From Escherichia coli (GTDB taxonomy: Bacteria > Pseudomonadota > Gammaproteobacteria > Enterobacterales > Enterobacteriaceae), in NCBI RefSeq assembly GCF_003018115.1, contig NZ_CP027457.1: a DNA stretch of 64,000 nt; one strand, 5' to 3'. A program made the position numbers. Below, piece after piece: positions 57,901 to 63,900 of the stretch (the first letter of the stretch is position 1; every line of letters begins with the position of its first letter).

Positions 57901-60900
57901 ACGGTGCCAGCATCAGCCAGTTTGAGCTACATCTGCGGGCGATTACCGCTCTGCCGTTACCGCAACCGATAGTGAATAGTCCGTCGGTGATGATCAACCT
58001 GATTGGTAGCGATGTGAATTATGACTGGCTGAAATTGCCGCTGGTGCATCTGCACTGGTACGACAAAGAAGTCCGTCCGGGGCGTAAAGTGGGGCATCTG
58101 AATTTAACCGACAGCGACACATCGCGTCTGACCGCGACGCTGGAAGCCTTAATCCCGCTGCTGCCGCCAGAGTATGCCAGCGGCGTGATGTGGGCGCAGA
58201 GTAAGTTCAGTTAAGCAGGTGCTCATTTGATTGCCGGATGCGGCGTAAACGCCTTATCCGGCTTACCGCTCCGATACCCATTGTAGGCCTGATAAGACGC
58301 GTCAAGCGTCGCATCAGGCATGGTGCACCGATTGCTGGATGCTCTCATCACTACAGCGAAATACAGGTCCCCGCTTCGCCCGCCAGCGTCTCTTCAATTC
58401 GCGATAACGCCCCAATCCACGCGGGTTTACCACGGCTTCTGACATAACCACTCACCGCCGTTACCTTCGGCCCCATCGAACCATCGGCTTTGGCAAATGG
58501 CGCTAACTCATCCGGTGTGGCATGGCGAATGGCACGTTGCTGCGGCGTTCCCCAGTTTTCATATACCGCATCAGCATCGGTGAGGATCACCAGCCCATCG
58601 GCGTTAATCTGCTCGGCGAGCAACGCAGCGGCGAGATCTTTATCAATCACTGCTTCACTCCCTGCCCCGTCTTCCGTCACAGGCACACCGCCGCCGCCAC
58701 TGCAAATCACCACATGCCCCTCTTTGAGCAACAACTCGATGGCTTCGCTGTCGAGAATTTTACGCGGTTGCGGAGACGCCACCACCCGGCGCAAATATTT
58801 ACCATCACGTTTCATCTGCCAGCCGTAAGCCGCTTCCAGTGCCTCTTGTTCTTCTGGCTGATAAACCGGACCAATAAATTTCTCTGGCTGCAAAAACGCC
58901 GGATCATCAGGCGAAACCTCAATGCGCGTCAGCACCGTCGTAACAGGCGGCATCTGCGGCTGTGCGCTCAAGCTCTGCGCCAGCATATAGCCAATCATCC
59001 CCTGACTTTCTGCCACCAGCACATCCAGCGGATACGGTTCTACCTCTTTCCACGCCAGATTCTGTAACGCCAGCAGCCCCACCTGCGGTCCGTTGCCGTG
59101 AACAATCGCCAGTCGATAAGAACGGGCCAGGCGCGCCAGCGCGGGGACAGCACTGGCGATATTGCGATATTGATTTTCCGCCGTCAGCGCCTCACCGCGC
59201 TGGAGTAAGGCGTTGCCCCCAAGAGCTACAACCAGTGTTTTCATGGTTTTCCTTGTAATAATTGTTGACCAAGCCAGAACCCCAGCAGTGTATCTGCCCC
59301 TGACGTATGCCCCAGCGCCAGCAGCGAATCAATCGCAACAGCGGTACGTTTCGGGCAACTCAGAGCATGAACAAAGTGCAGGAGTGGCGAGGCGAAATAT
59401 CCTTGCGCGGCATAACGTAAATAACTGACGCTCACCGCTGTGGTAACGAGTTGCAGATTGTCGGAACAGGCAAAAAACGGACGACCGGAGCGCGCATCTA
59501 AAGCGCCATAATACCAGGCCGCCAGCAGCATTCCGCTCAGCGTGTCATCATGACTCGGCGTTAATCCGGGGCCTTTACCCAGCCAGTGCCGCCAGTCGGT
59601 CTTAACGCCATTGAGCGCGGCCTGAAAACAGTGACGAAACTGGCGTAATTCAGCAGGCAGCGGATCGCTTGCCGCCAACACCAGTGGCCCGAAAAGCCCG
59701 GTTTCCTCCGCGCGTTGCATCCATGCAGCTACAAGCGGTTGAGGATGCGCAGGCGGCGTAATACGCAGCAAACAATAACGCTGTGGCTGTTTAACCGTGA
59801 AACGCCCGAGGCGAATCCCTTGAGCCACAACCTGTGGTCGTTCATTGCCGCATAATCCACCGCATAACGCATCGAATTGCGCACGGCGAAGCACCCATCC
59901 TCCGGGGCCGAAACCACTACCCTGACGATGCAGCGTTAACAGTTCGCCGCTTTCCGTCATCAGGTTAATCGCCCGCCGCCACACTCCCGCTAACCGCCAG
60001 GACTGGCGATAATTCGGTGCGCTACTACTGGCAAGCAGAGGATGGATGATCGTCATTGCGCGTTCCTCAACCAATACCCATGCTTTCAGCCAGTGCTTCC
60101 AGCGCCTGTTCAAAGCACGCCAGCGGTGCCCGCACGGTGCCTGCGCCAATCTGCCCGATCCCCGCCTCTTTATGGGCGATACCGGTATTGATGAGTGGCG
60201 TAATGCCGGTTTCTACCACGCGACGAATGTCCAGTCCCAGGCACGCGCCCTGAAAATCCCAGCTTGGGATCTGCAACTGCATATTGCGTTCAAGGTAAAT
60301 TTCCGCCATCTCTTCAGATACCGCCCTGGCCGCTTCCATGCCACCCGCACCGACAAAGCGCGTTACGCCAGGCGCTGCGATCATTGCCGCACCTCCGATA
60401 CCAAAGGTTTCGGTAATCGCGCTATCGCCCATATCCGGGTTCGCCTGCTCCTGCGAGAAGCCGGTGAAAAACAGACCTTGCGGAGTGTTTACAGGCGCAG
60501 TAAACCAGCGTTCACCCAGCCCGCTTACCCGAATCCCGAACATATTGCCGTTGCGGGTCATTGCCGTGACGATGCTGCCTGCGCGGATCATCGCGCCAGC
60601 ATCCATCACCGCCTTGCAGTAAGCCATCGCGAGGTTGAGGAAGAACTGATCGGTCACGCTGAGGAAATCCATCACTTCCGCGATGTGCTGTTTATCATGA
60701 TCGAGGCGAGCAATTTGTGGGGCCAGCGCACGCATTAACAGTGCTGAGGAAGCAATATTGCGTTGATGGAACTCATCGCCCATGGTAATGCCCTGCGCCA
60801 TCATCGCAGTAAGATCGATACCGCGCTCCATGCGCCCCAGCGCCGCGCTTAATACTGGCATTAACACATCGCGCATCCAGCGATGGCGAGTCAGGACATC

Positions 60901-63900
60901 TTCGCCGTAAGCGCCAAAACGCATCACTTTGCCGATACCTTCGTTGAGGTTGCAGTACGCCCGGTTGCCGTCGGTCACGTTCTCGACCACCAGCATCGGC
61001 ATACTGGCAGAAGTAATACCGCCCATTGGCCCGACGGCATTCACATGGTGACAAGGAATGAAGTTCACTTCCCCCTGCTCCAGTATTGCCAGCGCCTGCG
61101 CTTCATCTTTCGCCCAACCTTCGAACAGACATGCGCCCACGCACGCCCCTTTCATGGGTCCGGTCATCTCCTGCCAGCGCATTGGCGGCCCGGCGTGAAG
61201 CAGTGTTTTGCCCGGGTGTAGTTCGCTGATAAGTGAAGAAGCCGGTTGCACATCCAGCCAGTGTGGACGAGCGCGACGAATTTGTTCGATAACCGCAGCA
61301 TTGGCTTGCGCCACTGATGTAAACATGGGAACCCCTTATTGCAAACGTTCTAATAAACGAGCCAGTTTTTTATTGCCGCCGGCGACTGGCGACCATTGGT
61401 AATGCACAACCGGTTTGCTGGCGCTTTGTAGCTCCAGCGCAAAACTGCGTAATCCGATGTTAATCACGGCGACGTTTTCCAGTAATGACGGTGTGTGTTG
61501 CTGTGCGGCAGGCGAGAGCGGATGAATTAACGCTGCCGCCAGCAAGGTGGCTTCCGGTAGCGAACTCACGACCGCAATCCCCGCATCTTCCAGCGTGGCG
61601 ATTTGCTGCGAGCGGCATTGCGGGTCACGTTCGGTACCTGTCACCGTGGCAATGGCGTACAGCGGTTGGCTGTCTGAACGCGCGGCACAGGCTTTTTGCC
61701 AGGCGCTCACCAGCGAGGCGGCAGGATCGGCGGTCGCGCCGAAGCCAATCACGACATCAAGTAGCAATACGCGCACTGACGGTTTAGCGCCGAGATCGGC
61801 AATTAACTGGTTGCGTAAGGTTGGGTCGATCATCGGATGGGGACGCCCGACGGTGTAGAAATCATCGCCGAGGTCAATAATCTGGTGACCATCGGCGTCG
61901 AGCATCATGCCGTGATGATGGGCATCATCGGCTTCCACGCCAAGGTGTCCGGCAAGTAATCCCGCCGCTTCGGCAGCCAGCGTACCGCCGGTATACAAAC
62001 CGCAAATAAATCCGCTGCTGGCAGGCGTTATCGCGTTACGTCGCGCCGTAACGCGTGAAAGCAGGCAAGCCAGGCGTGCGGCCTCATCCAGCGAGGAGGC
62101 AAACCAGACATTCTCGTCGCGGGCCACCGCCGGGGTATAACCTAAAAACAGCGCCACCGTCGGTTTGCCGGTTGCTTTCATGGCATTAACAATTTTCAGA
62201 CGCACCGCTTCGGCAGGTGGTTTTGAAACAAATGCCAGCACTTCGCTTTTCTCGTCTGCACTGAGCATTTCCAGCGCCGTCAGCGCACTGATGCCGCCCA
62301 CTTCACGGCTGAGGTCGCGGCCGCCAAGGCCAATCGCGTGAGTAATTCCCTCCCCTGCCAGCGCAATCTGCGAGCACAGCTCCTGAATCCCGGTACCGGA
62401 AGCGCCAATGACACCAATGTTGCCTTCCGGCATCACGTTAGCAAAAGCCAGCGGCGTGCCGGCAATCATCGACGTACCGCAGTCCGGCCCCATCACCAGC
62501 AAGCCTTTTTCCCGCGCGCGGGTTTTAAGTTGGATTTCATCTTCCAGCGTGACGTTATCGGAGAACATCATCACGTTGAGGTTGCGATCCAGCGCCTGAT
62601 TCGCCAGCTCCGCCGCATACTCGCCAGCCACTGAAATCAGCGCCAGATTGGCATCGGGTAATTTCTGACAGGCACTGTCCCAGCGACGCACCTGCGTCAA
62701 CGCCTGGCTGCTGCCTGACCCCTGCGCCAGTTGTTTTAGCGCCTCTTCAAGCTGCTGCATAATCGCCTGCGCGATCCCCGCATCCGCCGCTTCGCTACGA
62801 ATTGCCACGCAAATATCGTTCGGCGTGGCGTTATTAAAATCGTCATGCCAGAAACCTGTGGTATCTAATAACGCTTTATTGGCGGGCGTACCCATCATTA
62901 CGGAAACATCATCAACATTTTCTGATTCGCTGAGTTTTCGTGAAATAATCATTAAACTGACCGAATCCTGAAAACACCCTTTTTTAATAAAGGCGTGGAT
63001 CATAACAACTCCTTAAAAATTGCACCCATGGCAATTGCACGAGCAGTGTTAATGTGGCGATTACGGTATCGATGACAACGAGTAAATAAGGTGATGAATA
63101 TCACACAGGGATTATTAACAAAAGAATTCAAATAACCGCCAGACTATTACGAGTTATTTTTTAATAAGCATGGTTGTTTTAAAAACCAGGTTAAAAGCGC
63201 GAAGATTATCAAATAAATTCTAACTATATTTTTTTGCCTGTCTGGATCACATAATCCAGATATTTTCCCTGTATGTTAATTGCAGTCATGCTTCACACCG
63301 TCGTTAAAAAGGAAGACAGATGAAAATCAGTCGGGAAACACTCCACCAGCTAATTGAGAATAAACTCTGCCAGGCTGGGTTAAAACGTGAGCACGCTGCA
63401 ACCGTGGCTGAAGTATTGGTGTACGCCGATGCCAGAGGGATCCACTCTCATGGCGCGGTGCGCGTGGAATACTACGCGGAACGCATTTCAAAAGGCGGCA
63501 CCAACCGCGAACCGGAGTTTCGTCTTGAGGAAACCGGGCCGTGCTCGGCAATTTTACATGCCGACAATGCCGCCGGACAGGTCGCGGCGAAAATGGGTAT
63601 GGAACATGCCATCAAAACCGCCCAGCAAAATGGCGTTGCGGTGGTCGGTATCAGCCGGATGGGTCACAGCGGCGCAATCTCTTATTTTGTGCAGCAGGCA
63701 GCCCGCGCCGGATTAATTGGCATTTCGATGTGCCAGTCCGATCCAATGGTGGTGCCGTTTGGCGGCGCGGAAATTTACTACGGTACTAACCCACTGGCCT
63801 TTGCCGCGCCGGGAGAAGGCGACGAGATCCTTACCTTTGATATGGCGACTACCGTACAGGCATGGGGAAAAGTGCTCGACGCCCGCTCGCGTAATATGTC

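Follow-up and report, generated by a model that had tools for sequence, protein, structure and literature searches.

Organization of the ylbE locus

The 64,000-nucleotide stretch of Escherichia coli DNA analyzed here (the window) carries ylbE (allG), which encodes a subunit of oxamic transcarbamylase, as a single intact ORF of 419 aa at 60067..61326 on the minus strand. The ORF opens with ATG, its end coordinate includes the stop codon, and the ORF listing and the raw sequence agree on it. By arithmetic, 419 stop-free codons would occur with a probability of (61/64)^419, or ~2e-9 per start position, so this is not a chance ORF. The test of family membership was a match above the gathering score across the complete HMM, and Pfam PF06545 (AllG, formerly DUF1116) matched ylbE with 327.1 bits (cut-off 27; E = 5.8e-98) over positions 1-215 of its 215. 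Since an NCBIfam scan returned no model for YlbE or YlbF, the family assignment is made through Pfam and through collinearity with the characterized K-12 protein. The first-pass annotation had described ylbE as an uninterrupted 419-aa ORF at 60067-61326, and the ORF listing, the raw sequence, the PF06545 match, and the length of K-12 b4572 all bear this out. It gave no strand for the gene; the strand is minus.

A search of the PDB by sequence identified 3clq, a DUF1116 protein of 421 aa, as a full-length homolog (query 2-414 against chain residues 7-418, E = 7.8e-111), and the fold of the AllG family has therefore already been solved. The 3clq protein comes from another organism, was deposited without a function, and is uncharacterized; the same search found no structure of an AllFGH complex. 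Plus-strand ORFs that overlap ylbE (e.g., 60046..60738, 230 aa) were rejected as genes because they lie antisense within a conserved coding gene; they are unannotated in K-12 and uncalled in near-identical contigs.

The gene is the second of four in the order allF-allG-allH-allK (fdrA-ylbE-ylbF-ybcF), all of them intact, closely linked, and encoded on one strand. The first, fdrA (allF; 61336..63003, minus), encodes 555 aa, the length of K-12 b0518, with CoA_binding and Ligase_CoA domains in Pfam that resemble succinyl-CoA synthetase alpha, and is matched by NCBIfam NF004760 at 1043.6 bits, above the cut-off; 9 nt separate its stop from the start of ylbE downstream. Downstream, ylbF (allH; 59241..60056, minus) starts 10 nt past the ylbE stop, which is spanned by a GAGGA motif, and, read from its ATG at 60056, encodes 271 aa, with a match to Pfam PF11392 (AllH, E = 5.4e-29). 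A 302-aa version of ylbF from an upstream TTG was discarded as a mechanical extension, the gene being 271 aa long in a near-identical contig and in K-12. The fourth gene, ybcF (allK; 58351..59244, minus), overlaps ylbF by 4 nt and encodes a 297-aa catabolic carbamate kinase (NCBIfam NF006926, 621 bits, likewise above its cut-off; Pfam AA_kinase; see also PMC9843812). Divergent from allF is the 5' part of allD (ureidoglycolate dehydrogenase; 63320..64000, plus), which runs off the end of the window and whose start, taken from the K-12 alignment, is approximate.

Comparison with K-12 and the legacy frameshift allele

In the current MG1655 RefSeq record (NC_000913.3), ylbE (b4572, YP_009029994.1) is an intact 1260-bp CDS of 419 aa at 548357..549616. 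Our gene shares its start, stop, and length and aligns with it collinearly over the full length (1260 versus 1260 bp), at the same chromosomal position and with an identical flanking order, as expected of an ortholog of K-12 AllG. The two are 98.9% identical in nucleotides, with 14 substitutions and no indels; 10 of the 14 lie in codons that specify the same residue in both genes, and 416 of 419 residues are identical, the three changes from K-12 AllG being N37H, E38P, and A240V. The neighboring allF, allH, and allK and their spacing are alike in MG1655, and the four-gene block of 4653 bp differs by 78 mismatches and no gaps. Alignment with the K-12 region, the check proposed in the first-pass annotation, thus shows the identical frame structure in NC_000913.3, which is the outcome that annotation had named as counting against its claim.

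The belief that K-12 ylbE is a pseudogene goes back to older records, and the window was compared at the site in question with both MG1655 NC_000913.3 and W3110 NC_007779.1. In the W3110 RefSeq record, ylbE is 1259 bp long (547581..548839) and annotated as 'frameshifted'; this legacy allele has four G residues (G4) instead of five (G5) at nt 253-257 of the gene, together with A instead of G at nt 114. Translation of the legacy K-12 allele ends after about 86 codons, whereas the G5 run of the window, at 61070..61074 on the minus strand (C5 on the plus strand), carries no -1 frameshift and reads through. In papers that rely on the older MG1655 record, ylbE counts as a pseudogene, which two changes, +G at 547,831 and A->G at 547,694, restore together (PMC5460176, PMC4404585, PMC3045373). 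One of these papers (PMC3045373) speaks of the undisrupted version as the 'intact ancestral gene', and an EcoCyc note records the change from U00096.2 to U00096.3. The first-pass description of K-12 ylbE as a frameshifted pseudogene therefore holds for U00096.2 and the W3110 record and fails for the current NC_000913.3.

At least 80% of ylbE is present in 5417 of 5426 complete E. coli genomes, and in a sample of 60 spread over the ranking the match was exactly 1260 bp, with the ylbE product annotated beneath it, in 59. The exact frameshift allele occurs in only four of the 5417 records: W3110 and the strains CIT, LIM, and CAR. In the K-12 strains MG1655, C600, J53, ER1709, and ME8067, the ylbE match is one base longer than the frameshift allele. 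The CIT, LIM, and CAR records (NZ_CP026026-28) have nearly equal lengths and carry the G4 allele at the identical coordinate, 547680, a pattern that reference-guided assembly against U00096.2 would explain. Variations among MG1655 stocks were reportedly documented by Freddolino et al. 2012. In E. coli, the intact gene is ancestral and almost universal, and the current MG1655 reference has it too; the G4-for-G5 change behind the frameshifted pseudogene occurs only in legacy K-12 records, namely U00096.2, the W3110 RefSeq, and three assemblies with the same coordinates as these.

Function of AllG and status of the allele

Purified AllF-AllG-AllH from K-12 shows OXTCase activity, which interconverts oxalurate and oxamate plus carbamoyl phosphate and depends on all three proteins (Kim and Kim 2024, PMC11326118). 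Measured against that system, the window has the three subunit genes and allK intact, in the published order and beside allD, and no difference in gene content was detected. According to the literature, AllG, AllF, and AllH jointly form oxamic transcarbamylase (also called oxamate carbamoyltransferase), which in anaerobic allantoin degradation splits oxalurate into oxamate and carbamoyl phosphate; the carbamate kinase AllK then uses carbamoyl phosphate to form ATP, with release of NH3 and CO2. Enzyme activity and pathway role are thus taken from published work; our own analysis shows that the gene is intact and collinear with its K-12 counterpart, to which family it belongs, how the operon is ordered, and how rare the frameshift allele is. 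The allele in the window (H37, P38, V240) is predicted to be active. We consider 60067..61326 (minus) to be a wild-type, functional ylbE/allG allele, the second gene of the allF-allG-allH-allK operon, with a probability of about 0.97.

Two other accounts of the gene are each very improbable. The first holds that ylbE, although intact, is dispensable and drifting, i.e., a pseudogene at an early stage that has not yet acquired a frameshift. The legacy K-12 records did suggest loss without obvious harm, and the function is required only for anaerobic growth on allantoin (PMC11326118), but the Pfam match is very strong and full-length, most of the differences from K-12 do not alter the encoded residue, full length is kept across the 5417 genomes, the exact 419-aa protein recurs in 271 blocks of the public assembly collection, and the neighbors allF, allH, and allK are likewise intact, with little space between the genes. 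The second takes the G4/G5 run as an unstable homopolymer that toggles oxamic transcarbamylase in some K-12 stocks rather than as a legacy artifact, which would make the intact gene in the window the 'on' phase of a contingency site.

We give still less credence to the proposal that ylbE, ancestrally a pseudogene in E. coli or K-12, was made whole again specifically in this strain, by reversion or compensating mutation, and so marks an unusual lineage. It draws on the frameshift recorded for W3110 in RefSeq and in earlier K-12 entries, and on several engineering papers that still use ylbE as a pseudogene integration site; yet practically every complete E. coli genome has the 1260-bp form, as does NC_000913.3, the G4 allele is limited to the four records named above, the intact gene had already been called ancestral in PMC3045373, and the window, gap-free against MG1655, holds no compensating indel. 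The intact MG1655 gene, its gap-free alignment, and the rarity of G4 refute the proposal.

On the reading of ylbE as a wild-type operon gene, the biological weight of the finding is small and its practical value is one of caution. The claim that K-12 ylbE is a pseudogene stems from the legacy U00096.2 annotation and persists in the W3110 RefSeq and in metabolic-engineering papers, which treat the gene as a 'neutral' integration site. Inserting a cassette in ylbE may disrupt a working allantoin-to-oxamate pathway, and variant calls at the ylbE site against the old references are reference artifacts.

Strain identity and the prophage at argU

A full-length lambdoid prophage occupies the DLP12 site at 1..44919, extending past the start of the window, with its attachment site at argU, tRNA-Arg(UCU) (44935..45011, minus; ARAGORN and the K-12 map). 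Its integrase lies at 43756..44919, its head/tail module is 96-97% identical to lambdoid phages of 46-49 kb, and its identified early genes are int, exo, bet, cI, cII, O, and P. The DLP12 of K-12 is a deleted remnant that lacks the counterparts of window positions 1685..23515 (~21.8 kb, head/tail genes) and 34695..41994 (~7.3 kb, early genes), and the IS3 and IS5 insertions of K-12 are absent from the window. Over the region, identity to K-12 MG1655 and W3110 is 97.8-98.0%, compared with 99.993% to the draft E. coli assembly GCA_015285665.1 (1 mismatch in 13,934). The window accordingly has neither the regional near-identity nor the deleted remnant at argU that would place it in the K-12 lineage.

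That the window is nevertheless K-12 (MG1655 version 3 or another K-12 with intact ylbE), as the shared frame structure and the K-12-like gene order from allD to argU might suggest, is exceedingly unlikely, being refuted by the mismatches in ylbE and the four-gene block, the far closer draft assembly, the two prophage segments missing from K-12, and the IS3 and IS5 found only there. That the strain is not K-12 follows from sequence divergence and the prophage, and not from the ylbE reading frame. The first-pass annotation had taken intact ylbE together with the full-length prophage to suggest a strain other than K-12 MG1655; the conclusion and the prophage stand, and the reading frame, shared with MG1655, drops out of the argument. 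Intact ylbE is useless for distinguishing the strain from MG1655: it is an ordinary, already characterized gene of allantoin breakdown and no strain marker, and its integrity and function, like the gene itself, had been documented before. An origin in Shigella or a cryptic Escherichia clade came into consideration since identity to the top complete E. coli genome reaches just 98.9% over 20 kb, but it is unnecessary in view of the match to GCA_015285665.1; the source lineage is simply missing from the complete-genome set.

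ylbE is an intact gene of the OXTCase operon

The ylbE (allG) gene of the window is a single open reading frame on the minus strand (60067..61326) with an ATG start and 419 codons; the first-pass annotation, which described it as uninterrupted and gave no strand, placed it exactly according to both the ORF listing and the raw sequence. By our own arithmetic, a stop-free run of this length has a chance of ~2e-9 per start position and is thus far beyond chance. The product matches the whole model of Pfam PF06545 (AllG, formerly DUF1116) with an E-value of 5.8e-98, and a full-length homologue is represented by a solved structure (3clq; E = 7.8e-111) that was deposited without a function. 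Its neighbors are fdrA (allF; 61336..63003; 555 aa), which contains CoA_binding and Ligase_CoA domains and scores 1043.6 bits against NCBIfam FdrA; ylbF (allH; 59241..60056; 271 aa), a match to Pfam AllH; and ybcF (allK; 58351..59244; 297 aa), which matches the NCBIfam carbamate kinase at 621 bits. A gap of 9 nt separates fdrA from ylbE, with an AAGGGG motif before the ylbE ATG. The interval from ylbE to ylbF is 10 nt, a GAGGA motif runs across the stop codon of ylbE, and the end of ylbF overlaps the start of ybcF by 4 nt. Spacing as tight as this is typically seen in operons whose genes are translationally coupled. At the window end lies the 5′ portion of the divergent gene allD.

The gene is ordinary, intact, and already characterized, not novel. 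Purified AllF-AllG-AllH, the oxamic transcarbamylase (OXTCase), is active; in the reverse direction, carbamoyl phosphate and oxamate have Km values of 1.3 and 36.9 mM, respectively. Production of oxamate from allantoin requires each of allF, allG, and allH (PMC11326118). These three genes are in an operon with allK (ybcF), which encodes the catabolic carbamate kinase (PMC9843812). We infer that the allele in the window is active; it would act by the published AllF-AllG-AllH mechanism, for which the enzymology comes from the literature.

The frameshifted ylbE allele is confined to legacy K-12 records

In the current RefSeq record of MG1655 (NC_000913.3), ylbE (b4572; YP_009029994.1) is an ordinary CDS of 1260 bp (548357..549616; 419 aa) that carries no pseudogene flag. 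The window gene aligns to it at equal length without gaps (14 substitutions; 98.9% identity); 10 of the 14 fall in codons that still specify the same amino acid, and the proteins differ by N37H, E38P, and A240V. Across the 4653 bp of fdrA-ylbE-ylbF-ybcF there are 78 mismatches and no gaps. The frame structure is identical in MG1655, the result that the first-pass annotation had itself taken as refuting its claim. Its description of K-12 ylbE as a frameshifted pseudogene holds for older records and for W3110, but not for NC_000913.3.

The pseudogene did exist in older records, as published comparisons describe. Relative to an older MG1655 record, 547,694 A→G and an inserted G at 547,831 were reported in "ylbE, C-terminal fragment (pseudogene)", and the two changes combined create an ORF (PMC5460176). 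When NCM3722 was compared with MG1655 in 2011, a ylbE frameshift difference was described as having "restored an intact ancestral gene" (PMC3045373). According to EcoCyc, the GenBank entry U00096.2 was replaced by U00096.3 in 2013 because version 2 matched no specific isolate (PMC5210515). The W3110 RefSeq record (NC_007779.1; 2582..3840 of the segment compared) retains a ylbE of 1259 bp flagged "frameshifted", and when we aligned it, A for G at nt 114 and G4 for G5 at nt 253-257 were found, exactly both published differences; beyond the G4 run, the frame meets a stop at about codon 86. The corresponding G5 run of the window, located by this alignment, lies at 61070..61074 on the minus strand (C5 on the plus strand).

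Among 5,426 complete E. coli genomes, 5417 contain ylbE at a coverage of at least 80%. In 59 of 60 genomes sampled across the entire match ranking, the match spans precisely 1260 bp and coincides with an annotated ylbE product, the remaining one being a truncation. When the 5417 records were searched with a 200-nt W3110 segment carrying both variants, exact matches were obtained in only four: W3110, CIT, LIM, and CAR (the last three NZ_CP026026-28). All other K-12 derivatives listed (MG1655, C600, J53, ER1709, and ME8067) span 201 nt with this query, so that the extra G is present in them. Given this prevalence and the four legacy matches, intact ylbE is the ancestral, near-universal state, and the frameshift is peculiar to a few legacy K-12 records. 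All four carry the legacy allele at the same coordinate, 547680, which suggests, rather than a natural polymorphism, an error of a legacy reference that reference-guided assembly has propagated; CIT, LIM, and CAR would accordingly be reference-guided assemblies. The exact 419-aa protein of the window is recorded in 271 blocks of a public assembly collection, which indicates a common natural allele. Metabolic engineers still treat the "ylbE pseudogene" as an integration site in W3110 (PMC7677707), and the sole use of the present observation is as a reminder that this name is a legacy annotation.

Relationship of the strain to K-12

The first-pass annotation had suggested, from the ylbE frame together with the full-length prophage, that the strain is not K-12 MG1655. 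The argument from the frame fails, the frame being the same in MG1655, but the conclusion stands by sequence divergence and by the prophage described below. Across the region, identity is 97.8-98.0% with MG1655 and W3110 but 99.993% (1 mismatch in 13,934 bp) with contig AAXCRO010000016.1 of the draft assembly GCA_015285665.1. For window positions 44000..64000, the best matches among the complete RefSeq genomes, O55:H7 and O157:H7 strains, reach 98.9% over 20 kb, and the lineage apparently has no representative among complete genomes.

The argU prophage and DLP12

A lambdoid prophage (1..44919; integrase, 43756..44919) is located at argU, the tRNA-Arg(UCU) gene (44935..45011), which is the site of DLP12 in K-12. 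Compared with the window prophage, DLP12 lacks 1685..23515 (~21.8 kb; head and tail genes, terminase to tail fibre) and 34695..41994 (~7.3 kb; early region), and contains insertions of IS3 and IS5 that the window prophage does not have. In its head and tail module, the window prophage shares 96-97% identity with lambdoid phages of 46-49 kb, such as PhiR29_2 and PhiR26_1, and its early region has exo, bet, and genes for a CI-like repressor, CII, O, and P. Judged from these alignments, the window prophage is the undeleted counterpart of the cryptic prophage DLP12. Its earlier description as full-length is supported by the DLP12 alignment, the head and tail module, and the early genes; the prophage extends past the start of the window, and its far end is outside.

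Within the prophage is an intact NmpC-type porin gene (27369..28466, plus strand; 365 aa; Pfam Porin_1, E = 1.8e-156), whereas nmpC of K-12 is split by IS5. An intact SAM-methyltransferase-like ORF (524..1192, plus strand; 222 aa) lies in a segment aligning at 97.9% to the stretch of K-12 that includes the ybcY pseudogene, and is apparently ybcY in undamaged form.

Directly downstream of the CI-like repressor, on the same strand, two ORFs (37822..39372, plus strand) occupy the slot of lambda rexAB. They encode 340 aa (phrog_3482) and 168 aa (phrog_16807), both PHROG entries being annotated as of unknown function, and neither had a match in Pfam or PADLOC. The pair is possibly an uncharacterized exclusion or defence cassette. 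Of 50,697 phage records, that of phage Perceval alone contains the entire segment, annotated there as a hypothetical protein and a transmembrane protein; the other phages that match do so over ~40% of it, and a cI repressor is annotated beneath most such matches.
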